64,000 nucleotides of DNA from Balneolaceae bacterium UBA3186. GTDB taxonomy: Bacteria; Bacteroidota; Rhodothermia; Balneolales; Balneolaceae. The stretch is taken from positions 29,786 to 93,785 of the forward strand of contig DEXK01000008.1 of assembly GCA_002364085.1 (NCBI GenBank), read 5' to 3'. Both the position numbers and the translations under genes were made by a program. Of this stretch, positions 13,542-50,703 are shown piece after piece. Under the pieces are notes generated by a model that searched no databases, was not told the origin of the DNA, and saw only the letters and a list, made by a program, of their open reading frames with translations. Positions within the stretch are counted from its first letter, which is position 1. Every line of letters starts with the position of its first letter.

Positions 13542-13597
13542 GGTTATTAGTTAATGGTTATCGGTATACGGAAACAAATAACCATTAACCAATCACT
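13542..13597. repeat. Inverted heptamer tandem-repeat hairpin
   Basis: GGTTATT AGTTAAT GGTTAT(C), 16-nt loop, (A)ATAACC ATTAACC AATCACT; the arms match 17/20 as reverse complements. Confidence 0.75.
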
Positions 13598-33597: not shown

Positions 33598-34107
33598 TCA
33601 GATTTCTTTCAGCACCTTGGGGATCATCATCCATTCAAGCTCACAACCTCCCCATTGTACTTGATCCCAGCTAGCTGCATATGAATTAACGCATACTAAA
33701 GCAGCAGTGGGCATGCGAATACCTGAAGACCGTTCAGACCCAATCAACGCTCCGGCCGTATCTTCCATTTTCGGATTGTGTCCGACAATCATTACTCGTT
33801 CTACATCACCATCAGCTGATTGTATAGCTTTCAAATAGTCTCTCACACTTCCATAATACAAGTCACTATTCCAAGTAATAATACTTTCATTTTCTTTCAT
33901 TCCTTCTACAGCAAGCTGAGAAGTTTCTCTTGCCCTCTGTGCTGTTGATGAAATAACCAAATCAGGCGCTCTTCCTATCTTTCTCAGAAACTTCCCCATT
34001 CTTGGGGCATCTTTTAACCCTCTTTTGGCTAACGGCCTGTCAAAATCATCTAAACCCGGGTGATCCCAACTCGATTTTGCATGCCTAAGTAATAGTATCT
34101 GTTTCAT
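33598..34107 (-). CDS. sixA: SixA-family histidine phosphatase
   Basis: LLRHAKS (RHG-type motif), DFDRPLAKRG, SSTAQRARET, VGHNP. Confidence 0.92.
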   Translation of the reverse strand: MKQILLLRHAKSSWDHPGLDDFDRPLAKRGLKDAPRMGKFLRKIGRAPDLVISSTAQRARETSQLAVEGMKENESIITWNSDLYYGSVRDYLKAIQSADGDVERVMIVGHNPKMEDTAGALIGSERSSGIRMPTAALVCVNSYAASWDQVQWGGCELEWMMIPKVLKEI

Positions 34108-34111
34108 GAGC

Positions 34112-35422
34112 TCATTGTTTATGTTGAAATTTTAAGAACAGCTCTTTTTTTGCAAATAATGTCAACGTAACCCCTCTTATAACCATAAAAGAAGTCATTG
34201 CGATCCATAGTGCATGGTTACCTGCAAATGGCTTTACTAAATAATATACTGGAACAAAGAATATAATTGTAGCAATCAACATTGAATTCCTCATTGCAGC
34301 CGTTGAAGTTGCTCCGATGTATACTCCATCCCAAATAAAACATATGCTATTGATCAATGGAGCTATAATTAACCAAATGGCTACTATCATAGCTGTTTCA
34401 ATGACCAAAGGTTTATCTGTGAAAATGGATAACAACTCGCGATCAAATAAGGCATAAAACAATGTCCCCACAACACCGAATCCCAACCCCCATGCCATAC
34501 ATGTCCAGATAGCTTTCCTCATTTTTTTGAAATCCATAGCTCCCACATACTTACCCACCAAGCTTTCTGCGGCATATGCAAATCCATCAACTGCATAAGC
34601 ACTTATATACCACAGCTGAAGTAATATCGTATTTGCAGCCAACCAAACATCTCCCATTTCAGCTGATGATGCGGTGAAAAAGCCGTATGAAAAAATCAGA
34701 CATAAGGTTCTGATGAAAATATCTCTATTTACGCTGAAGAACTTTTTCAATTCCTCTAGTTCAATAAGATCGCTCCAGGATACGTTAAGTTTTACTTTAT
34801 TATATGTACTCAGGTATAGGATTACCGCCAGAACAACTGCTAGATAACTGGAAAGCAGGCTTCCCCACGCAACTCCATCAACATTCATTCCAAAATAGAA
34901 TACAAAGGTCAGGTTTAATATTATATTCAGAATGTTGAGAAATATGGTTACAACCATTGGATATCGTGCATTTTGCATACCCAGAAACCAACCGTTTATA
35001 GCAAAAAGACTTAAAGTAGCAGGTGCCGAAAACACTCTGATCTTATAGTAAATACGAGTGTACTGTTCAACTTCAGGACTGGCATCTATAACCCATAAAG
35101 AAAATTCAATTAATGGATACTGCAACAGCAGTATAGCTACCGATCCTGCCAATGCTACCAAAAGTACTCTTATCAGAATTACTTTGGTCCTGTGAATGTT
35201 ATTAGCTCCGTATGCTTGTGCAACCAAACCCGTAGTGCCCATTCTCAGAAATCCGAATCCCCAAAAAATAAAATCAAAAATAATACTCCCTACAGCTATA
35301 GCTCCTAAATAGTATACATGCTCTAAATGCCCGATAACTGCCGTATCAACTGCTCCAAGTAATGGTACTGAAATATTACTGATAATATTGGGTATGGCTA
35401 ATTGAAGTACTCTTTTATTCAA
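34112..35422 (-). CDS. MATE family efflux transporter (DinF-like)
   Basis: LAIPNIISNISVPLLGAVDTAVIGH, FGFLRMGTTGL, LRTL-type second repeat, VDGFAYAAE, about 12 TM helices. Confidence 0.95.
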   Translation of the reverse strand: MNKRVLQLAIPNIISNISVPLLGAVDTAVIGHLEHVYYLGAIAVGSIIFDFIFWGFGFLRMGTTGLVAQAYGANNIHRTKVILIRVLLVALAGSVAILLLQYPLIEFSLWVIDASPEVEQYTRIYYKIRVFSAPATLSLFAINGWFLGMQNARYPMVVTIFLNILNIILNLTFVFYFGMNVDGVAWGSLLSSYLAVVLAVILYLSTYNKVKLNVSWSDLIELEELKKFFSVNRDIFIRTLCLIFSYGFFTASSAEMGDVWLAANTILLQLWYISAYAVDGFAYAAESLVGKYVGAMDFKKMRKAIWTCMAWGLGFGVVGTLFYALFDRELLSIFTDKPLVIETAMIVAIWLIIAPLINSICFIWDGVYIGATSTAAMRNSMLIATIIFFVPVYYLVKPFAGNHALWIAMTSFMVIRGVTLTLFAKKELFLKFQHKQ

Positions 35423-36947: not shown

Positions 36948-37001
36948 TATAACACCCTAACATTTTAGCACATTATTGTGTTAGCTTGTTATAGTGTTAC
37001 A
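36948..37001. repeat. Inverted octamer tandem-repeat hairpin (nnTAACAC x3 each arm)
   Basis: TATAACAC CCTAACAT TTTAGCAC - ATTATT - GTGTTAGC TTGTTATA GTGTTACA. Confidence 0.65.
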
Positions 37002-37034
37002 GTTGTTTCCTTATATTTACTCAAAAATTACTTC

Positions 37035-37586
37035 ATGCGAATAATTACCGGAAAACTTAAAGGACGCCGCTTTTCAATTCCAAAAGGATTGGATGTACGC
37101 CCTACCACAGACCGAACTAAGGAGAGTATCTTTAATAAGATTGTTGCTTACAAATATTTGGAAAACTCTGTAATTCTGGATCTCTTCGGTGGATCAGGAA
37201 ATTTGGGATTCGAAGCAATTTCCCGCGGTGCTAAGCAAGTTACTTTCGTCGATATTAAACCGGAGAATATCAAGCTGATCGAAAAAGTAGCTGCTGATTT
37301 CGAGATCGAAAAAAATATCAGAACCGTGGTTTCAGATGTTCAACAGTTTTTAGAAAACAGAACTATGAGCTATGATTTTATTTTCTGTGACCCACCATAC
37401 TGGTATGAATGGATGGATGAAATGATTGCCGAGATAATTGATAACGAATGGCTGAATGAAGATGGTTGGTTTATTCTGGAACATGATAAGTACCATAATT
37501 ACGAGGAACATCCCCATCACTTTTTTAGTAAAGCGTATGGCAGAACAACCGTTAGTATTTTTGAAAAGCATCCGGTAGAGAAGTGA
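37035..37586 (+). CDS. rsmD: 16S rRNA (guanine966-N2)-methyltransferase RsmD (start revised to ATG 37035)
   Basis: MRIITGKLKGR, VRPTTDRTKESIFN, LDLFGGSGNLGFEAISRGA, DFIFCDPPY, YGRT. Confidence 0.96.
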   Translation: MRIITGKLKGRRFSIPKGLDVRPTTDRTKESIFNKIVAYKYLENSVILDLFGGSGNLGFEAISRGAKQVTFVDIKPENIKLIEKVAADFEIEKNIRTVVSDVQQFLENRTMSYDFIFCDPPYWYEWMDEMIAEIIDNEWLNEDGWFILEHDKYHNYEEHPHHFFSKAYGRTTVSIFEKHPVEK

Positions 37587-38227
37587 AAACGCTAACTCTA
37601 ATACCTCTTTTTTTAATCGTACTTCTTAGTTGCAGAAGCAGTAAAAACTTAACCCCTAATCCTGAAAATTATCAACATTTGGATATCAATGGTTTTGCTA
37701 ATGAACTATTGAATGGTTGGGGAACCTTTAATACTAAAGAGTTTAATGATTATGTACCTCATAGCTATCATTTAAACAAAATTGAATTAGCTAAACACAT
37801 AGAAAAAATATCCGCTGATTCTTCTTCAGCATTTAAAGGTTTAATTATTCTTGGCCCAATGTCTTTTTTGTGGGAATACCGTACAATATATATACAAGAA
37901 CACTATACTGATTCTAGTAAGATGATTGTAAACTTTCTACAGTTTCCGCATGCTCGGATTACATATAAAGCGACGAACTCAGTCGATATTAGTCAAGTTG
38001 ATTCTTTGATTACGAGTATTAAAAATACACAGTTCATTTATTCAGGTTTACCTTCAGCTTCCCAATTTAATGAGAAAGATATTTTAGATATAGATTCAAA
38101 ATTTGATCTTTTGATTCTATTTAAGACTAATAATGAGTTTCAATATTATTGGGGTTATATTGATGACAGTCCTATTGATGAGATTGGCAAAATTTTGACA
38201 GGCTCAATTACTACATATAATCACTGA
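37583..38227 (+). CDS. Hypothetical AT-rich lipoprotein between rsmD and coaD
   Basis: GTG start overlapping the rsmD stop (GTGA), lipobox LLSC, stop 2 nt before the coaD ATG. Confidence 0.7.
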   Translation: MKTLTLIPLFLIVLLSCRSSKNLTPNPENYQHLDINGFANELLNGWGTFNTKEFNDYVPHSYHLNKIELAKHIEKISADSSSAFKGLIILGPMSFLWEYRTIYIQEHYTDSSKMIVNFLQFPHARITYKATNSVDISQVDSLITSIKNTQFIYSGLPSASQFNEKDILDIDSKFDLLILFKTNNEFQYYWGYIDDSPIDEIGKILTGSITTYNH

Positions 38228-38229
38228 TT

Positions 38230-38721
38230 ATGAAACACATTGCCTTATATCCCGGTTCATTCGATCCCATCACATTTGGGCATCTCGATATTTTAGAACG
38301 TGCCACCAATCTTTTCGATAAGGTTTTAGTGACTGTAGCTGTAAATCACAGAAAGAATGCGGTTTTTTCCGGCGATGAAAGAGTGGAACTCATCAAAGAG
38401 TGCCTGAAGGGAAAAGAATGGGCAAAGAATGTTGAGGTAGATCAGTTTACAGGATTACTTGTAAATCATGCCAAGAAAGTAAAAGCGAATACACTGATCA
38501 GAGGTGTACGACAAATTTCTGACTTTGAATACGAATTCCGAATGGCGCTTACCAACAAAAGATTAGCCCCGGAAGTGGACACCGTATTTCTAATGCCCGA
38601 TGAACATTTTACTTTCATCTCAGCATCGCTGGTAAAAGAAGTCGCTCACTGGAATGGAGATCTTTCGTCCTTTGTGCCCGAACGAGTTGCAAAAGCTCTA
38701 CTGGAAAAACTAAATAAATAG
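38230..38721 (+). CDS. coaD: Phosphopantetheine adenylyltransferase
   Basis: YPGSFDPITFGHLDI, IRGVRQISDFEYEF, ISASLVKEVA. Confidence 0.98.
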   Translation: MKHIALYPGSFDPITFGHLDILERATNLFDKVLVTVAVNHRKNAVFSGDERVELIKECLKGKEWAKNVEVDQFTGLLVNHAKKVKANTLIRGVRQISDFEYEFRMALTNKRLAPEVDTVFLMPDEHFTFISASLVKEVAHWNGDLSSFVPERVAKALLEKLNK

Positions 38722-38739
38722 TTTTGGGCTAGATTAGCA

Positions 38740-38814
38740 GAACCTGAAGGATCTGCTTTTTTAAACCCTCTCAGGTTCATCTTGTTGTTATTTGGTATTT
38801 GAACTTTGTTTTTT
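38740..38814. repeat. Degenerate AACCTG/CAGGTT palindrome followed by a GnnnTTT x4 heptamer tract
   Basis: GAACCTGA-AGG...CCT-C-TCAGGTTC (38740-38778); GTTATTT GGTATTT GAACTTT GTTTTTT (38787-38814), whose reverse complement fits the AAAnnnC unit at 681-708. Confidence 0.5.
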
Positions 38815-38900
38815 TGTTCTTGAAATAGCGTTTCCCTTTTACCTAACTATTTGGGATTTTCCGCCTGCACAAAAAAACTATACTCCAACTCATCCCACGC

Positions 38901-40094
38901 ATGATATCCAACAGGGCACAAAACCTTCAGCCATCAGAAACTTTAAAGATCACCGGAAAAGCTAAAGAGCTAAAAAGACAAGGTAAGTCTGTAGTTTCCC
39001 TCAGCGCCGGAGAACCTGATTTCAAAACTCCGCGACATATTTGCGATGCAGCTATAAGAGCAATTAATGATGGATTTCACGGATATACAATGAATACCGG
39101 AACCCCGGAATTACGTGCAGCCATCGTTGCAAAGCTGAAAAGAGATAATGGTTTGGATTACGATCCGTCACAGATCATCTGCTCTAATGGCGCGAAACAA
39201 TCGGTTGGTTTTGGTTTATTGGCTATAGTAAATAAAGGCGATGAAGTAATTATTCCTGCTCCGTTCTGGGTTTCTTACCCTGAAATGGTTCGTTTGGCTG
39301 AAGGAGAATCTGTGCTTGTAAGAACTTCCTTTGAAAATGACTTTAAGCTTACGCCGCAGCAACTTGAAGATTCTATTACGGATAAAACGAAAGCAATCAT
39401 TCTATGCTCGCCTTCAAATCCTACAGGCGCTTGCTACTCAAAAGAAGAACTGGAAGAGTTAGCGAATGTGCTTCGTAAACACCCAGAAATTTATATTCTC
39501 TCGGACGAGATCTATGAGTACATCGTTTTTGACAGCGACCATGTCAGCATTTTGAATGTTGCACCAGACCTTAAAGATCGGGTGTTATTGGTTAACGGAT
39601 TTTCCAAGGGGTTTGCAATGACCGGCTGGAGATTGGGCTACCTTGCAGCGAGTAATGAAGTTGTAAGCGCTGTGTCCAAGATTCAAAGTCAGGAAACTTC
39701 CGCACCTTCTTCCATATCTCAGAAAGCAGCGGAAGCAGCATATAATGGCTCTTTGGATGAAGTTAAAGCTATGCGTGATCAGTTTAAAAAGCGTCGCGAT
39801 TTCATGGTTAATTCATTGAATGCTATTGAAGGAGTAAGCTGCTTCTCTCCGGGCGGGGCGTTTTATGTATTTCCGGATATTTCTCATTATTTAAATTCAT
39901 CAAAACCCGACGGAAGTAAAATTGAATCCTCAACAGAACTCTGTATGTACTTGCTGGAAGAATTCGGATTAGCTCTGGTCCCAGGTGACGCCTTTGGCGA
40001 ACCGAATGGATTGCGAATGAGTTACGCCGCTTCGATGAATGACCTTGAAGATGCTATGCAGAGATTTAAGAAAGGATTGGCGAGTTTGGGGTAA
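38901..40094 (+). CDS. PLP-dependent aminotransferase class I/II (aspartate aminotransferase-like)
   Basis: LSAGEPDF, SNGAKQS, PFWVSY, SPSNPTG, SDEIYE, NGFSKGFAMTGWRLGY (PLP Lys), GAFY. Confidence 0.95.
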   Translation: MISNRAQNLQPSETLKITGKAKELKRQGKSVVSLSAGEPDFKTPRHICDAAIRAINDGFHGYTMNTGTPELRAAIVAKLKRDNGLDYDPSQIICSNGAKQSVGFGLLAIVNKGDEVIIPAPFWVSYPEMVRLAEGESVLVRTSFENDFKLTPQQLEDSITDKTKAIILCSPSNPTGACYSKEELEELANVLRKHPEIYILSDEIYEYIVFDSDHVSILNVAPDLKDRVLLVNGFSKGFAMTGWRLGYLAASNEVVSAVSKIQSQETSAPSSISQKAAEAAYNGSLDEVKAMRDQFKKRRDFMVNSLNAIEGVSCFSPGGAFYVFPDISHYLNSSKPDGSKIESSTELCMYLLEEFGLALVPGDAFGEPNGLRMSYAASMNDLEDAMQRFKKGLASLG

Positions 40095-40112
40095 TTTATT
40101 ATTCAAAGCGTT

Positions 40113-40198
40113 TGAAGCAGAATTATCTTAATTACTGGATTTGCAGGATTTAGTTTATTTAATTTTACTAATTCTGTAATCCTGTAAATTCTGCTTCA
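40113..40198. repeat. Long imperfect hairpin built of AAT(T/C)CTG(T/C)(A) 8-9-mer units, upstream of the GxxExxY gene
   Basis: TGAAGCAGAATT (40113-40124) is the exact reverse complement of AATTCTGCTTCA (40187-40198); inner ACTGGATT TGCAGGATT faces AATTCTGT AATCCTGTA. Confidence 0.8.
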
Positions 40199-40205
40199 GA
40201 TTGCT

Positions 40206-40586
40206 ATGATTAAAAATGAGCTCACTTATAAGATCATAGGTTGTGCAATGAATGTTCACAACACTATTGGTCCTGGCTTTCAGGAAGTTATATACCAGCG
40301 TTGTCTTAAAATGGAACTAGAAGAATCCGGATTGAACTTCGAAAGAGAGAAGAATCAAGCCATATTTTATAAAGATGTACAGGTTGGAACTAGAAGAGCA
40401 GACTTTGTAGTAGAAGAAAAAGTAATTGTTGAAATAAAAGCCGTTACAAAACTTGAAGATGTTCATCTTGCGCAAGCAAAAAATTATACAGTTGCTTATG
40501 ATTTTCCTTTAGGATTATTAATTAATTTTGGGAGTAAAAGCATGGAATATAAATTGTTGTTCAACCCCAAATATCATCCAAAATAA
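40206..40586 (+). CDS. GxxExxY protein (PD-(D/E)xK nuclease superfamily)
   Basis: GPGFQEVIY (GxxExxY), RADFVVEEKVIVEIKA (D...ExK), GLLINFG. Confidence 0.95.
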   Translation: MIKNELTYKIIGCAMNVHNTIGPGFQEVIYQRCLKMELEESGLNFEREKNQAIFYKDVQVGTRRADFVVEEKVIVEIKAVTKLEDVHLAQAKNYTVAYDFPLGLLINFGSKSMEYKLLFNPKYHPK

Positions 40587-40601
40587 TTCAAGTATGCTGA
40601 C

Positions 40602-40630
40602 AATTCTTTAATCCTGTAAATTCTGCTCCA
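40602..40630. repeat. Second direct copy of the 29-bp repeat, downstream of the GxxExxY gene
   Basis: AATTCTTTAATCCTGTAAATTCTGCTCCA vs AATTCTGTAATCCTGTAAATTCTGCTTCA (40170-40198): 27/29 identical. Confidence 0.85.
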
Positions 40631-40644
40631 ACCTACTTTTTTCT

Positions 40645-41421
40645 ATGGCCTACAAACCTCTTAAACTTTGGTTCGATAAAGAACTGGCAGAACAGCTTTC
40701 GGAAAAACTACTTTCTGTTAGATCTGATTTTAACTCAATTCCTTTCCTCAAAAAAGTAAATGCAGGAGTTGATGGACTGGAACTTAAAGAAAGAGTCGAG
40801 TTAATAGCTGATGAGCTAAACAACCATTTGGAAAGCGATTATCCACAACAAGTTGAAGTTTTGCTTCAAATACTTGGTCCTGAAAACGATGAAGAAACAG
40901 GAATGTTTAAGAAATATTTCTGGATCATGCCCATCGCAAAATTTGTAGAAAAGTATGGTTTAGATCACTTTGATGTCTCCATGAGAGCTATACAAGAGAT
41001 CACCAAGAGAAATACGGGTGAATATGCCATACGGCCCTTTATTGAAAAATTTCCTGAACAAACAATGGCAAGAATGAGAGTCTGGTCGTTGGATTCCAAT
41101 AAACACATCCGAAGGTTATCAAGTGAAGGCGGTCGGCCGAGATTGCCCTGGGCCACCAAACTTCAAATGTTTATAGATGATCCAAATCCATTATTTCCTA
41201 TTCTGGATAACCTTAAAGACGATCCTTCAAAATATGTTCAGAAATCTGTAGCTAACTGCCTGAATGATATATTGAAAGACAATCCAAAAGTTGCCAAAAG
41301 AATTATCGAAAAATGGATTACAGATGCTACGATAGAAAGAATCTGGATCATTAAACACGCACTCAGAAATCTTCGGAAACAAAATGATGAATGGGCGATG
41401 AAGATTATTTCTGCTCTTTGA
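40645..41421 (+). CDS. DNA alkylation repair protein (AlkC/AlkD HEAT-like glycosylase family)
   Basis: LELKERV, EYAIRPFI, HIRRLSSEGGRPRLPW, LKDDPSKYVQKSVANCLNDI. Confidence 0.9.
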   Translation: MAYKPLKLWFDKELAEQLSEKLLSVRSDFNSIPFLKKVNAGVDGLELKERVELIADELNNHLESDYPQQVEVLLQILGPENDEETGMFKKYFWIMPIAKFVEKYGLDHFDVSMRAIQEITKRNTGEYAIRPFIEKFPEQTMARMRVWSLDSNKHIRRLSSEGGRPRLPWATKLQMFIDDPNPLFPILDNLKDDPSKYVQKSVANCLNDILKDNPKVAKRIIEKWITDATIERIWIIKHALRNLRKQNDEWAMKIISAL

Positions 41422-41466
41422 TTTTAGGCCGATTCAAAGTACGTTCCTATAACTAAACTCATTTTT

Positions 41467-41829
41467 ATGGAACTAACAGCTAAAATACTCATCGGACTTG
41501 TCGCCTTTATGCATCTTTATTTTTTGTGGCTGGAAATGTTTGCATGGACAACACGCGCAAAGAAAGTATTCACTGGGTTTACACCTGATTTCTTTGAAAA
41601 GACTAAAAATATGGCTGCCAATCAAGGACTTTATAATGGATTTCTTGCAGCCGGACTTATTTGGTCCTTTTTTATAGAAAACCCTTATTGGTGGATCAAT
41701 GTGGCCTTATTCTTTCTGAGCTGTGTAGCAATCGCAGGTATCTTTGGAGCTGTTACAGTCAGCAAAAAGATCTTTTTCGTGCAAGGCTTGCCGGCAATTA
41801 TAGGGATTCTTCTATTACTATTTATTTGA
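41467..41829 (+). CDS. DUF1304 family membrane protein
   Basis: HLYFLWLEMFAW, AANQGLYNGFLAAGL, QGLPA. Confidence 0.92.
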   Translation: MELTAKILIGLVAFMHLYFLWLEMFAWTTRAKKVFTGFTPDFFEKTKNMAANQGLYNGFLAAGLIWSFFIENPYWWINVALFFLSCVAIAGIFGAVTVSKKIFFVQGLPAIIGILLLLFI

Positions 41830-41877
41830 GGTATGAGTAAAAATCGCATCACTTTTCTTGAAGATCTCTAATCAGAC

Positions 41878-42627
41878 ATGAAAGAATTCCACATTCTTAA
41901 CGGTGATGCTTTAAAAGAGCAATTTCCTGACTCTTTAAATGGTAAGTTAATTGTTGCCAGAGAATGTTTAGTGGATGGTGATGTATCTGCCGATTCGTTG
42001 GATCAGCTATTTCAGCTAAGAGCTGAATATTTAAGTAATGCCTACGATTCAGAAATTGATTTCTACCATCAAGAAGTAATCCCCGAGTTCAACAAAATTA
42101 TTTCTTTACCTGAACATTCAGTTATCAATCTTTGGTTTGAAGATGATCTTTATTGTCAGGTGAATTTATGGTTTGTGTCTCATTTGATTCACGATTTCGC
42201 AAGTCCTTCTCAGGTCTTTCTTGTTCGCCCACATACCGATATTCAGTATGGTTTCGGCGGTTTAAATTCTGATGGTCTAGAAAACGCTTTTAAATCAAAA
42301 GTCCGGTTATCTCGTGACGAAGTGAAGCTTTTCTCTTCTCTTTGGGCGTTATATCAGCATCAAGATCATGAGGGAATTTTAGAACTCGCTCTGAAACACT
42401 CTGAAAGATTTCCTTTCTTAGAAGATACTGCAAAGGCGAACCTCGATCGGTTTCCAAATGATGGTTCACAGGGAAGACCTGAACGAACACTACTGGACAT
42501 CATGAAAGAATTAGACTCTGATGAATTTGGTCCTGTTTTCAGGGAATTTCATAAAAGAGAAAGCATTTACGGCTTTGGAGATCTTCAGGTAAAGCGATTG
42601 TTTGACGAATTGAGAAATAGTAACTAA
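41878..42627 (+). CDS. DUF1835-like protein
   Basis: FHILNGDAL, RECLVDG, LWFEDDLYCQVNL, YGFGDLQ. Confidence 0.8.
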   Translation: MKEFHILNGDALKEQFPDSLNGKLIVARECLVDGDVSADSLDQLFQLRAEYLSNAYDSEIDFYHQEVIPEFNKIISLPEHSVINLWFEDDLYCQVNLWFVSHLIHDFASPSQVFLVRPHTDIQYGFGGLNSDGLENAFKSKVRLSRDEVKLFSSLWALYQHQDHEGILELALKHSERFPFLEDTAKANLDRFPNDGSQGRPERTLLDIMKELDSDEFGPVFREFHKRESIYGFGDLQVKRLFDELRNSN

Positions 42628-42669
42628 AGAAATCTTTCTTTCAGTGTAATTCTGATTATTTTCTCTCCT

Positions 42670-43239
42670 ATGAAAAGAACTCAAGCTTATACTGATGCCT
42701 TAGATCAATTTGTTCAACTTTGGGGAGATATGGCCTCTGCTTGGGGCATCAATAAAACGATGTCACAGATTCACGCATTGCTGTATGCTGAATCTCATCC
42801 GCTTGATACCGACACTATCATGGATAAACTTGATATAAGTCGTGGAAATGCCAATATGAACCTGCACCGGTTAGTGGAATGGGAATTGATCCATAAAGTT
42901 CAAAAATCCGGAACGCGCAAAGATTTTTACACTGCTGAGACCGATGTCTGGAAAATAGTATCTACAATTATACGAGAACGGCAACAAAAGGAAATCGAGC
43001 CCATCAGAGCTGAATTGAAAGAGTGTATCGCTACGTTGGAATCTGGCGGGTTAAACGATGAAGAAAGCAAAGCCTTCAAACAACGGATAGAAAATTATAA
43101 TGAGTTTCTGGAAATGTTTGAGCGATTTACCGGAGCTCTTCTCCCTTACATCAATAAAAAGAATCTCGGCTTTTTGAAACAGCTCATAAAATTAGTGGAA
43201 GTAAAAGAATCATTGATAGGAAAAAAGTCTGATGACTAA
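42670..43239 (+). CDS. GbsR/MarR-family transcriptional regulator
   Basis: FVQLWGDMASAWGINKTMSQIHALL, ISRGNANMNL..L..W.LI, RKDFYTAE. Confidence 0.92.
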   Translation: MKRTQAYTDALDQFVQLWGDMASAWGINKTMSQIHALLYAESHPLDTDTIMDKLDISRGNANMNLHRLVEWELIHKVQKSGTRKDFYTAETDVWKIVSTIIRERQQKEIEPIRAELKECIATLESGGLNDEESKAFKQRIENYNEFLEMFERFTGALLPYINKKNLGFLKQLIKLVEVKESLIGKKSDD

Positions 43240-43597
43240 AAAAACCACCCGTGAAATTGGAAACGAAGGCGAGGAACTGGCTTGTGCATATCTGGAAAGT
43301 AAAGGCTGGAGAATTCTGGAAAGAAATTATTTTTTCGAAAAGTCAGAGGTTGATATAATAGCTTATGATGACACAGCTATTGTGTTTATCGAGGTAAAGC
43401 TTCGATCTTCTGATAAATATGGCAGGCCTGAAGAATATGTCTCTGAAGTAAAAGTAGAACATGTTTTTAAAGCTGCGGAGGCATGGATGTATGAACGGAA
43501 AATGGATGGTTCTCCCATGCGCTTTGATGTAATTGGAATTCTGCAAAAGAAAAATGAAGCGCCTCAATTCAATCACATTCAAGATGCCTTTCGTTAA
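43232..43597 (+). CDS. YraN family protein (UPF0102)
   Basis: G..GEELA..YL..KG..ILERN, EVDII, VFIEVKLR, RFDVI. Confidence 0.95.
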   Translation: MTKKTTREIGNEGEELACAYLESKGWRILERNYFFEKSEVDIIAYDDTAIVFIEVKLRSSDKYGRPEEYVSEVKVEHVFKAAEAWMYERKMDGSPMRFDVIGILQKKNEAPQFNHIQDAFR

Positions 43598-47031: not shown

Positions 47032-49023
47032 TTAAGACTTAGGCAAGCTAACTATAAATTCAGATCCCTTATATTCTTCTGAAATAACAGTAATTGTGCC
47101 GTTATGAGCCTCTACCAGATCTTTACATAACAGCAATCCCAATCCGGTTCCTTTCTCAGAAAGTGTCCCTCTTCTTTGCGGTCTGTTTTCTTTATCAAAA
47201 AGCTGATCTTTAATTTCTGGGGTCATTCCAATTCCGGAATCCTTAATACTGATAGTTACAGAATGCCCACTCTCATTTATATTCACATTTATCTCACCAT
47301 CTTTTTCGGAGTACTTAATTGCATTCGAGATCAAATTTCTGAAAACAGTGGAAAGCATATTGGCATCAGCCATAATATGCACATCAGACGGCTCCAAATT
47401 TACGGTTACTCTTTTTTTTGCTGCAGATGTTTCGAAAATGGAAAAACTGTAAGATAATAGTTGAGCAATATCTACTTCTTCTCTTTCAATGCTAATTTCA
47501 CCATTCTGAACCCTGATCCAATCAAGCAGATTCTCCAGGAGCTCATAAGCATTGTTTGAGGATAAATGTACAAGTGAGAGAGTCTTTATGCTCTTTTCAA
47601 TTTTGTCTTTACTATTACTTTCTTTTAACTCATCAATCAAAAGCTCGATCAATCCATTAATCCCGAAAAACGCTCCTTTTAGATCATGCGCAATAATTGA
47701 GTACAGTTTGTCCCTTGTTTCAGTAAGCCTCAATAGCTCCTCGTTTTGAGCAATTATTCGCTTCTCATAATTAACCTGCTTACTTATGTCCTGAAACGTT
47801 CCACTAAGCCTTACTACATTCCCATCAACTATATGCGGCTCACCAATTGCACGCACCCACTTAAAAACTTTTTTTTCTGAAATAAATGGAAGTACAAGGT
47901 CATATTTTTCATGATTCATAGTGGCTTTGTTAATAGCCATTGAAAGTTTATCTCTGCCTTCCCCCGGAAAATGATCCATTCCTTCTTCCAGTACAATTTC
48001 TGATCCAATTTCTTTATCATGAATTCGGTACACTTCATCAGTCCAGGATATCTTTCCTGTCGTTAGATCAAATTCCCATCCACCTACATTCGCCATTTCC
48101 TGGGCTTTCTCGAACATCAATTCCAGATTCTTTCTGGCAGTTACATCTCTTGAAATAGATTGCAAGCCTATTGGTTTACCATCAAGATCCTTAACTGTTG
48201 AAACTGAACTCTCAAACCAAATATACTCTCCCTGTTTATTTCGAATCCTATATCTGGAATTAGTTATAATCCCATTCTCTTCCAATTCTTTTCGGGGATC
48301 CTCCATCAGCATTTCCAGATCTTCTTCATGGATCAGGTCAGCATGATTCTTTCCAAGTAACTCCTGATAAGTATAGCCTAAAATATTTTCTACTGAAGGG
48401 GATATAAATGTATACACTCCATCCATGTTATGTAAACAGATCAGGTCAGCACTATTTCTAGAGATCAGTTCAAGCCGTTCATTTTTTTCTTTTAGGGCCT
48501 TAACTATTCTAGCTCTCTTTATTGTAGCTGCCACCCACTCACTCAAAAGCTTCATCAGAGTGAAATCAGACGGAACAAATCCTCCTTTTTTTGGATTTGG
48601 GCTCGAAAAATTTATGGTCCCGTATAATTCTCTGTTTATAATTATTGGAATTCCTATATAAGCTTCCAGAGAAAAAGTATTGTAGCAAGGGTGACGCTCA
48701 TATGCTGATTCTTTCATATGATTGATCGCAACAACATCATCACTTTCCAACGTTATACTACAGTAGGTATTCCCAAGATCAAATGTTTGTCCCACAGAAA
48801 GCCCGGAATCTTCCGGAAAGAAATTTCTAATTGTATATGTCGCACTCTCATTTGAAATGGAACTGATAATACCTATTTCCATTCCCAATAACTTCGTAGT
48901 TAGCTCAAGTGCATTATCCAGCTGGTCGTTTAAGTCTTTTTTTGGCTGAGACGTGATCTGATACAGAAGCTGTAGCCGCTTCTCTGTTTCCCCAAATTCT
49001 ATTGTGTTGTTATCGGATTTCAA
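47032..49023 (-). CDS. Cytoplasmic GAF-PAS-PAS sensor histidine kinase
   Basis: GAF (AYIGIPI...LYGTINFS), two PAS domains, H-box IIAHDLKG, NLISNAIKYS, DSGIG, GTGLGL; TTG start. Confidence 0.94.
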   Translation of the reverse strand: MKSDNNTIEFGETEKRLQLLYQITSQPKKDLNDQLDNALELTTKLLGMEIGIISSISNESATYTIRNFFPEDSGLSVGQTFDLGNTYCSITLESDDVVAINHMKESAYERHPCYNTFSLEAYIGIPIIINRELYGTINFSSPNPKKGGFVPSDFTLMKLLSEWVAATIKRARIVKALKEKNERLELISRNSADLICLHNMDGVYTFISPSVENILGYTYQELLGKNHADLIHEEDLEMLMEDPRKELEENGIITNSRYRIRNKQGEYIWFESSVSTVKDLDGKPIGLQSISRDVTARKNLELMFEKAQEMANVGGWEFDLTTGKISWTDEVYRIHDKEIGSEIVLEEGMDHFPGEGRDKLSMAINKATMNHEKYDLVLPFISEKKVFKWVRAIGEPHIVDGNVVRLSGTFQDISKQVNYEKRIIAQNEELLRLTETRDKLYSIIAHDLKGAFFGINGLIELLIDELKESNSKDKIEKSIKTLSLVHLSSNNAYELLENLLDWIRVQNGEISIEREEVDIAQLLSYSFSIFETSAAKKRVTVNLEPSDVHIMADANMLSTVFRNLISNAIKYSEKDGEINVNINESGHSVTISIKDSGIGMTPEIKDQLFDKENRPQRRGTLSEKGTGLGLLLCKDLVEAHNGTITVISEEYKGSEFIVSLPKS

Positions 49024-49146
49024 AGGGATATTAAGAACAAAATTACCGGTTATGTGAGATTACGTTATTTTAGTCATAATTGCCATATCAACCATTAATG
49101 TTTCTTTAATGAAAGACGGGCCACTAACTAACCATTACAATTAAAC

Positions 49147-49185
49147 AAAAAAAAGCCACATTGTTTTAAAATCAATGTGGCTTTT
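49147..49185 (-). terminator. Terminator of tRNA-Val
   Basis: AAAAGCCACATTG/CAATGTGGCTTTT perfect 13-bp stem; A-run gives a U-tract on the minus strand. Confidence 0.9.
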
Positions 49186-49210
49186 GGAATTTGTTGCTTA
49201 AAATAAGTTG

Positions 49211-49285
49211 TGGGCGATGAGGGACTCGAACCCCCGACCCCCTCGGTGTAAACGAGGTGCTCTAAACCAACTGAGCTAATCGCCC
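49211..49285 (-). tRNA. tRNA-Val (anticodon TAC), CCA not encoded
   Basis: Minus strand GGGCGATTAGCTCAGTTGGTTTAGAGCACCTCGTTTACACCGAGGGGGTCGGGGGTTCGAGTCCCTCATCGCCCA; anticodon arm CCTCG-TTTACAC-CGAGG. Confidence 0.97.
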
Positions 49286-49297
49286 TAACAAGGGCGA

Positions 49298-49328
49298 CAA
49301 ATATATGAACATTTATAATGCAGACAAA
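49298..49328 (-). promoter_or_regulatory. Canonical Bacteroidota -33/-7 promoter of tRNA-Val
   Basis: TTTG, 19 nt, TATATTTG on the minus strand, ending 12 nt before the tRNA 5' end. Confidence 0.75.
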
Positions 49329-49407
49329 GAAATTTCTTCATAAATATTGATTATTTGGTTAACACTGTTAACTTACGCCATACAAAAGAATAAAAATCCC
49401 CCATATT

Positions 49408-50703
49408 TTGAATAAGTATCCTTTTACAGCTGTTCTTGTTGATGGAATCAGAACTCCCTTTTTAAAATCAGGCACAAATTATAATGATCTTATGGCTTAC
49501 GACCTCGGACGTTATGCTATTCAGGGCTTATTAGCACGTAACGCTGTTGATCCCCTTATCATTGACAGGGTCATTATGGGGAATGTCATCCAAGAAGTTC
49601 GTACCAGTAATGTTGCTCGGGAAAGCGCTTTAGGTGCAGGTATTCCACATTCCGTACCGGCATTTACAGTAGCTTTGGCATGCATTTCTTCGAACCAAGC
49701 TATAGCAAGTGGTGTTGATCTGATAAGATCCGGGCAAGCAAAGATCATTTTAGCCGGAGGTACGGAAACGATGTCAGACATTCCGGTTCGGTTTAAGAAA
49801 AAATTTCGCCAAAAAGTGCTGAAAGCACGAAAGTATAAGTCACCTTTAGATTTTCTGAAATTCTTAAAAGGACTTCGTCCCAAGGACCTTCTCCCTGAAC
49901 TACCTGCAATTGCAGAGTTCTCGACAGGAGAAACTATGGGTAAAAGTGCCGACCGAATGGCTGCAAAGTTCGGAATCTCACGCAAGGATCAAGATGAATT
50001 TGCGATGCGCTCACATCATTTAGCTGCAAAAGCCACGCAGGAAGGTTTGTTGGATGATGAAATTTTTCCAGTAAAGGTACCGCCTAAATTCTCCGTTGTT
50101 AACAATGACAATGGTTTTCGTGCAGACACTTCAGTTGAAAAACTGGCAAAGTTAAAACCAGCTTTTATAAAACCCCACGGAACTATTACAGCCGGAAATG
50201 CTTCTTTTTTAACGGATGGCGCATCTGCAGCTTTTATAATGGAAGAACAAACAGCTCTTTCATTGGGGCTTAAACCAAAAGCTTATTTAAGGGAGTATAA
50301 TTTTGTGTCTCAGGATCCTAAAGATGAATTGCTACTTGGCCCTGCATATGCAACACCAAAAGTCTTAGATCAAATGAATCTTAAACTTGAAGATATTGAC
50401 GTTTTCGAAATTCATGAAGCATTTGCAGGTCAGGTTCTTTCCGTATTAGCTGCTCTAGACTCTAATGAATTTGCTAAAAGATCATTAAACAGAGATTCTA
50501 AACTGGGAGCAATTCCGATGGATAAGATTAACACCATGGGTGGATCTCTCTCATTGGGGCATCCTTTTGGAGCTACCGGAACAAGGTTGGTTACTACTGC
50601 AGCAAACAGACTTATACTTGAGGATGGAAAGTATGCTTTAGTTACAGCTTGTGCTGCCGGTGGTCAGGGTCATGCAATTATCCTAGAGAGATATCTAGGA
50701 TAA
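49408..50703 (+). CDS. fadI: Acetyl-CoA C-acyltransferase (FadI/trifunctional enzyme beta type thiolase)
   Basis: GIRTPF, LACISS (catalytic Cys), HEAFA, GHPFGATG, CAAGG; TTG start. Confidence 0.92.
   Translation: MNKYPFTAVLVDGIRTPFLKSGTNYNDLMAYDLGRYAIQGLLARNAVDPLIIDRVIMGNVIQEVRTSNVARESALGAGIPHSVPAFTVALACISSNQAIASGVDLIRSGQAKIILAGGTETMSDIPVRFKKKFRQKVLKARKYKSPLDFLKFLKGLRPKDLLPELPAIAEFSTGETMGKSADRMAAKFGISRKDQDEFAMRSHHLAAKATQEGLLDDEIFPVKVPPKFSVVNNDNGFRADTSVEKLAKLKPAFIKPHGTITAGNASFLTDGASAAFIMEEQTALSLGLKPKAYLREYNFVSQDPKDELLLGPAYATPKVLDQMNLKLEDIDVFEIHEAFAGQVLSVLAALDSNEFAKRSLNRDSKLGAIPMDKINTMGGSLSLGHPFGATGTRLVTTAANRLILEDGKYALVTACAAGGQGHAIILERYLG

Follow-up and report, generated by a model that had tools for sequence, protein, structure and literature searches.

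The 550-nt gap between an aminotransferase gene and an AlkC-like gene in a marine Balneola is, in our assessment, somewhat likelier than not to hold the gene-bearing copy of a low-copy, hairpin-armed GxxExxY nuclease cassette, whose arms are the predicted recognition and recombination sites of the nuclease enclosed by them. Three features assign the locus to such a type of cassette: a PF13366 gene that lies inside inverted arms of phased units, arm ends that are shared with homologous loci, and the occurrence of gene-less derivatives. No published description of a hairpin-armed GxxExxY cassette was found. What is new here is the distribution of occupied and empty sites on a tree of sister species, the solo-hairpin footprint, the recombination breakpoints located at the arms, and the recognition of a direct repeat as an extra internal arm. 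The window, by which we mean the whole 64,000-nt stretch of DNA analyzed, lies on contig C11 of the 3.23-Mb genome G000.

All features of the site are found on the plus strand. An aspartate/PLP aminotransferase gene (38901–40094; NCBIfam aminotransferase models, E 5e-137) is followed by a gene for an AlkC-like HEAT-repeat protein (40645–41421; DNA_alkylation, PF08713, E 3e-5, 24.2 bits against a cut-off of 21), and every part of the cassette falls within the gap between them: an 18-nt spacer, an 86-nt hairpin, 7 nt, the 381-nt GxxExxY gene, 15 nt, and a second repeat copy termed R′. The hairpin (40113–40198) consists of 38-nt arms around a 10-nt loop. Its left arm L (40113–40150), identified as one half of an inverted repeat, is composed of four phased units of ~9 nt that each end in RATT, and the outer end of L, TTGAAGCAGAATT, is homologous to the end CTGAATCAGAATT displayed across the family, as judged from the arm-end consensus and from the colinear pairing of R′ in relatives. 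Beyond the loop (40151–40160, placed by local folding) lies the internal right arm R (40161–40198), the other half of the folded inverted repeat, with units that begin AATYC and a terminus reading AATTCTGCTTCA. Units of the GAATT and GGATT types are mixed inside one arm at this locus. The final 29 nt of R (40170–40198) constitute the first copy of a direct repeat, of which R′ (40602–40630) is the second. The two copies are identical at 27 of 29 positions with a spacing of 432, and their 17-nt core, expected 0.03 times in the window, is present twice.

Folded as DNA, the hairpin reaches −16.3 kcal/mol (z = −6.5), a value matched by none of 200 shuffles, while R′ has no local pairing partner (−2 kcal/mol, z +1.5). 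Over seven alleles the hairpin is 93% paired, with one or two compensatory pairs; this weak covariation counts against our reading, and RNAalifold chose another register within the unit repeats of the hairpin. The original prediction, made from the letters of the window, had described the 381-bp gene, the 29-nt repeats and the unit-built hairpin correctly in every detail, and this arrangement is far beyond chance. It had also stated that no transposase or integrase is nearby, and indeed no transposase, integrase or recombinase gene was detected within ~6 kb of the cassette.

The gene itself (40206–40586) encodes a 126-aa protein retrieved by both TIGR04256 (139.5 bits, cut-off 35) and PF13366 (134.3 bits, cut-off 22). 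Its signature residues G24, E27, Y30, D66, E76, K78, Q90 and Y94 are intact in an alignment of 19 sequences that extends down to 31% identity, and the conserved pattern corresponds to the E...D...ExK...QxxxY signature of RecB/Cas4-type PD-(D/E)xK nucleases. A search of PDB sequences with the protein returned nothing, even at an E value of 10. The AF2 model (pLDDT 90.6) displays the element order α-α-β-β-β-α-β-β of the PD-(D/E)xK fold, and its top Foldseek matches are Cas4 SSO0001 (4ic1), LHK-Exo/lambda exonuclease and MGME1, with query-normalized TM-scores of 0.55–0.60. Cas4, lambda exonuclease and MGME1 work on single-stranded or recessed DNA ends. On the strength of its profile, signature and modeled fold, the GxxExxY protein is a predicted minimal RecB/Cas4-like PD-(D/E)xK nuclease that comprises, at this length, only the catalytic core; the shared signature notwithstanding, it differs from the Cas4/RecB family in having neither the Fe–S cluster module nor the CRISPR context. 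Between species, the gene exhibits a dN/dS of ~0.03–0.07, which indicates that the protein is kept functional by purifying selection. The GxxExxY/PF13366 family is very large, with at least 8000 scored candidates, all at E < 1e-10, and it is entered in the searchable literature solely as a family of unknown function, a point that we count against our reading.

Orthologous sites that are occupied, reduced to a solo hairpin, or tight occur within a single genus, making the locus a compact natural experiment for PF13366. The cassette is present at the aminotransferase–AlkC site in five species (G000, G014, G002, G008 and G017). Two further genomes, G011 and G021, possess empty sites with gene gaps of 116 and 120 nt, each containing one whole L–loop–R hairpin and differing from the occupied allele by exactly one repeat plus the gene; empty alleles that retain a solo hairpin had been predicted in just this form. 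The deletion endpoints fall within 12–19 nt of identity between R and R′. In G004 and G022, the two host genes are separated by 13 and 7 nt, respectively, and the hairpin is absent, which implies that hairpin and gene were both added to an originally tight junction. Other inserts occupy the junction in G012, G013 and G005, and G013 also has a cassette of 79% identity in the following gap, beyond the AlkC-like gene. At the same site, G006 displays tandem hairpins with a cassette and also a solo hairpin. Three contigs of this genome (C64, C115 and C151; loci L026, L027 and L030) are involved: a 932-bp repeat, identical on two contigs, contains, besides the cassette and R′, a hairpin, a partial hairpin and an AlkC-like gene from which ~545 nt are deleted internally, and the contig bearing the aminotransferase stops right after another solo hairpin. 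This pattern reflects either the mixing of strains in the MAG or a genuine duplication.

A species tree built on the flanks (16 kb on the left, 10 kb on the right) has the topology (G005,G013),(G000,(G014,((G002,G021),(G012,(G008,(G017,G011)))))). Every empty genome is thus sister to an occupied one, and at least two or three events are required to account for the distribution. Among near-identical strains, no movement was seen. All 24 contigs that encode a 100%-identical protein carry it at the aminotransferase–AlkC site, an absence of transposition that counts against our reading. The search of metagenome contigs for the exact empty junction of the G000 type yielded two, both 97–98% identical to G021; as both belong to the G021 lineage, excision within a species was not seen, which likewise counts against our reading. 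On one metagenome contig with the identical GxxExxY protein (L079:4256–4806), a DUF433/PIN-like toxin–antitoxin pair that is absent from the window lies between the AlkC-like gene and a DUF1304 gene.

Comparison of the occupied alleles led to a revised reading of the direct repeat. The identity of 27/29 is peculiar to G000, whereas in G008, G017, G002 and G014 about 7 of the 29 positions distinguish one copy from the other. In these four relatives, the reverse complement of R′ matches L at 23–24 of 29 positions, or at 28–29 of 38 when the 15-nt spacer past the stop codon (40587–40601 in G000) is included, this spacer corresponding, in the relatives, to the fourth and innermost unit of that arm. 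Pairing between R and L is worse than that between R′ and L and requires one unit to be looped out. Since R′ is colinear with L, the canonical pair of arms is L...gene...R′, and R is an extra internal arm that, placed 10 nt past L, creates both the local hairpin and the 29-nt direct repeat. The high identity in G000 arose because its R′ took on, by replacement or conversion, the sequence of R from a solo-type allele, which the G000 copy of R′ resembles. R and R′ are evidently partners in recombination.

A fairly unlikely alternative is that the cassette is a passive insert that arrived once, was inherited vertically, and was occasionally deleted by slipped mispairing or short homology between the right-arm copies. 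The hairpin would then be a cis-acting RNA or DNA structure that processes, stabilizes or insulates, as in 23S rRNA intervening sequences, and so lets a foreign gene sit in an operon, with no link to nuclease activity. The position of the deletion endpoints within the R/R′ identity accords with this explanation, as does the tight ancestral junction, which suggests an operon, and identical copies are never encountered at another site. A scan for promoters and terminators identified no such sites flanking the cassette, so expression by read-through is plausible. The structural role proposed for the hairpin is not matched by any Rfam family, the single hit being a chance miRNA match whose 23 bits fall far below the gathering threshold of 94. 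A single arrival followed by vertical descent is also at odds with the sequence divergence of the locus, in which segments have incongruent nearest relatives and the gene has a dS 2–4 times below that of its flanks.

The incongruence is apparent in two mosaic alleles. G002 and its sister G021 are 96–98% identical on both sides of the locus and merely 87–95% across ~36.8–42.9 kb, a tract in which G021 stands at background distance from all other genomes. To the left of the hairpin, the nearest relative of G002 is G021; for the hairpin, it is the empty allele of G011 (96%); and for the gene, R′ and the 5′ part of the AlkC-like gene, it is G017 (96%, 98% and 95%). The simplest reading is that a G017-like donor supplied G002 with the gene module and that the left crossover took place within or next to the hairpin. 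This gain carried along ~900 nt of AlkC flank, and co-transfer of that extent is explained equally well by ordinary homologous recombination of linear DNA and by a nuclease-driven event, a point against our reading. In G000, the spacer and hairpin are nearest to G014, the gene is nearest to G008 (9 differences versus ~21–23 to others), and R′ with its flank is nearest to the empty, solo-hairpin allele of G021 (95%). The block of low divergence between G000 and G014 is limited to 40000–40599 and stops where R′ begins, with 3.3 mismatches per 50 nt versus 9–18 in most of the neighboring bins to either side. As hairpin, gene and R′ have different nearest relatives, recombination breakpoints are placed at the arms R and R′. 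Identity between G017 and G011 is patchy throughout, with no informative tract at the site.

Synonymous divergence adds a second line of evidence. Measured from G000, dS exceeds 1.2 for most genes of the 42-kb neighborhood. A 6.6-kb tract (36978–43594) instead shows values of 0.25–0.9 when G000 is compared with its congeners, while values elsewhere range from 1.2 to saturation, and the same interval is unusually divergent between the sisters G002 and G021. The lowest values belong to the GxxExxY gene (0.12–0.31, estimated from 126 codons in species comparisons that are non-independent), followed by the two adjacent genes at 0.35–0.8. A gene dS below that of its surroundings indicates a gene younger than those surroundings and fits interspecies exchange. 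Two additional valleys of dS are present in the window, at 33601–35422 and 47035–50700. As a separate observation, the window contains two more gene-less hairpins of phased units built from other words, at 36948–37001 (TAACAC/GTGTTA) and 13542–13597 (GGTTA/TAACC), the first of which lies at the left boundary of the low-dS tract that surrounds the cassette.

These patterns invite comparison with a homing-type selfish element, in which the nuclease would cut the solo hairpin or arm end of an empty allele and repair from an occupied allele would copy the gene–R′ module together with some flank. PD-(D/E)xK homing endonucleases are known, e.g., I-Ssp6803I. Examined for co-conversion of flanks, the locus offers a valley of dS centered on the cassette with its minimum at the gene, a G000–G014 block confined to the immediate site, and a left breakpoint in G002 at the hairpin, all of which homing would explain. 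The events are few, however, the valley is not the only one in the window, and the patchy identity of G017 and G011 leaves their tracts uninformative. Homing between species would further demand that donor DNA and nuclease meet in one cell. The occupied allele also retains an intact hairpin, unlike classical homing sites, and would therefore not be immune to cutting, a fact that counts against our reading as well. We consider a homing-type element quite unlikely.

Loci outside Balneola also support the proposal that the arms are recognition sites. Close homologues of the protein (67–79% amino acid identity) are distributed across many classes of Bacteroidota and in Ignavibacteriota, Cyanobacteriota and Desulfobacterota, and the family is characterized by arm ends of the form CTGAATCAGAATT...AATTCTGATTCAG. 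When 73 non-Balneola loci were scanned for CTGAATCAGAATT with up to two mismatches within 250 nt upstream and for the complement downstream, the left end was retrieved at 55 loci, the right end at 51 and both at 41 (background, 12 matches per 146 kb of more distant flank). The left and right ends yielded one and the same consensus, ATTGTCTGAATCAGAATTTaCAGAATTatAGAATTaaCAGAAT, in which four phased units can be recognized and conservation ceases abruptly at the outer end. Each unit reads CAGRATT plus 2–3 nt, and the family consensus amounts to four CAGAATT units with 9-nt spacing. Relative to CTGAATCAGAATT, the ends at the G000 locus carry two mismatches in L and one mismatch in R, the latter reading AATTCTGCTTCAG. 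That homologous GxxExxY genes would have similar repeat flanks had also been foreseen, and unit-built hairpins were accordingly found both within the genus and across phyla.

Conservation of non-coding ends beside proteins whose synonymous sites have long been saturated indicates a sequence-specific function. For the passive insert, such ends, 13–17 nt long and kept in four phyla, are difficult to accommodate, as they point to a sequence-specific reader and not to structure alone. The most common layout is L–gene–R (28 loci), and the L–R–gene–R layout of G000 recurs at a minimum of 5–10 unrelated loci, with right-arm direct repeats of 25–37 nt. At 12 loci the stop codon is located within the right end. 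Many homologues (L087, L092, L094 and others, as well as P0034, P0065 and P0112) have the stop inside the right arm or an ORF reading into the arm, and their C-terminal tails, such as NSENSENS or NSANSK, are translated AATTC units.

The other free-standing GxxExxY paralogues of G000 possess arms with different unit words. The closest paralogue, on C16, is flanked by complete GGATT-unit hairpins on both sides; the one on C13 lies between 27-nt inverted repeats with the word CACAGAG/CACAAAG; and that on C1 has arms of the CACGAAA type, identified by eye. The pairing of each paralogue with its own word speaks against arms that are incidental to the nuclease, as the passive insert would have them.

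Copy number separates the cassette from repeats that are dispersed by their associated enzyme. The original prediction had proposed a REP/RAYT-like unit whose nuclease multiplies its own hairpin at many genomic sites, an idea suggested by a gene flanked by copies of its own repeat and compatible with the existence of gene-less hairpins. In the 3.23-Mb genome, however, the 29-mer and its 17-nt core are confined to a single locus, and clusters of AATYCT units were located at only two, the cassette and the C16 paralogue, both beside GxxExxY genes. A pattern search of 23 Balneola genomes recovered 0–3 unit-built hairpins with family ends per genome. Three Y1_Tnp (RAYT/IS200-type) genes do exist in G000, on C10, C21 and C3, away from the cassette. 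With the copy number this low and an enzyme that is not of the HUH type, spread of the REP/RAYT kind was rejected as very improbable. The original interpretation is therefore partly upheld: the empty sites, the flanks of homologous genes and the lack of a nearby transposase or integrase agree with it; the dispersal did not hold.

Gene-less hairpins were additionally detected in G001, G007, G009 and G020. In G001, three gene-less GGATT-unit hairpins of 111 nt lie within 2 kb (C5:7461–9373), and the only close GxxExxY copy of that subclade in this genome is a pseudogene. The orthologues of these hairpins are single copies at G007:C9:119455, G009:C1:82521 and G020:C11:141833.

Another way in which a small gene may come to lie between imperfect palindromes is as a stray integron cassette, the hairpin then being an attC site handled by an integrase of the same genome. 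G000 does encode a chromosomal integron (C19:238943–247400) with a true integrase (434 bits, cut-off 265), followed by no fewer than 10 small ORFs of the same orientation with classical attC sites (TAACAAGCGTTTCAAG...GCTTAAACGC...GTTA) between them, and the order hairpin–gene–repeat resembles attC–ORF–attC. The likeness extends to a small promoter-less ORF and to presence/absence alleles bounded by a palindrome. Yet the resident attC sites share neither ends nor unit structure with the hairpin, no RYYYAAC/GTTRRRY pair is present at 40095–40644, R′ is not a hairpin, and the locus and the integron are on separate contigs. The cassette also has no attC boxes, array or adjacent intI. Because the attC sites are unrelated to the hairpin, this explanation was rejected at the level of sequence, and we regard it as barely credible.

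The low-copy nuclease cassette with cognate arms has its closest parallel in the Ssn enzymes. In the Ssn system, found in many phyla, a small single-domain nuclease gene has its own hairpin-forming repeat on one flank or on both (Chenal et al. 2025, PMC11893778). At least one SRM/NTS repeat is present at 71% of ssnA loci, 42% have repeats on both sides, and the enzymes cut ssDNA beside the repeat (PMC11893778). A nuclease adjoining its cognate sites is the same logic as that proposed for the GxxExxY cassette. The differences are that Ssn belongs to the GIY-YIG family (cd10448), whereas Pfam and fold searches assign the GxxExxY protein to PD-(D/E)xK only, and that the GxxExxY arms, built from successive phased 9-nt units and conserved at their outer end, surround the gene in the manner of terminal inverted repeats and are not dispersed in the genome. 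REP/REPIN elements with their RAYT genes (REPtrons) likewise feature a gene between inverted copies of a presumed target hairpin and gene-less hairpin derivatives, but RAYT is a HUH Y1 transposase (PF01797) with tens to hundreds of REP copies, and PF13366 represents another fold with few hairpins per genome. Intervening sequences of 23S rRNA resemble the cassette in having a small ORF within a long stem and in being tolerated within a transcription unit; the GxxExxY insert lies outside rRNA, and its ORF family is PF13366 rather than PF05635.

How the cassette might work can be sketched from these comparisons. We tentatively suggest, with confidence that falls somewhat short of even, that the encoded nuclease recognizes and cleaves its own arms, which become recombination junctions as a result. 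It would probably act on a single-stranded or extruded-hairpin form of the arms, its own recognition sites, much as RAYT acts on REP and Ssn on SRM/NTS, and the resulting nicks or breaks would turn the arms into junctions. The gene module could then be gained by import from relatives, lost through recombination between R and R′ with a solo hairpin left behind, or exchanged at the arm junctions, while the element would stay at very low copy and would not seed the genome with repeats. A bolder extension, which we think unlikely, holds that GxxExxY cassettes are autonomous, transposase-free mobile DNA: a Cas4-like nuclease would read the phased arm units and cut the arm end of a solo or occupied hairpin, repair from an occupied copy would home the gene module, and the arms would be carried across species and phyla, with solo hairpins serving as both footprints and landing pads.

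If the nuclease does read its own arms, it would be the third small nuclease, structurally unrelated to the others, found to live with cognate hairpins, after RAYT/REP and Ssn/SRM, and the family would be a possible source of sequence- and structure-specific ssDNA nucleases. The arm consensus, with its four units, regular spacing and defined outer end, supplies ready assay substrates.

One member of the family in G000 departs from the armed, free-standing form. The fifth GxxExxY copy (L005; C9:88800–91433) is annotated as PDDEXK_3 and forms an in-frame N-terminal fusion with a RecQ helicase, giving a protein of 883 aa, and it has no hairpin arms. The same ORF, 883–896 aa in length, is encoded in G008, G011, G017 and G021, and in G004 and G005 a separate GxxExxY gene is located immediately upstream of recQ. 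This arrangement suggests a domesticated copy that works with a recombination helicase.
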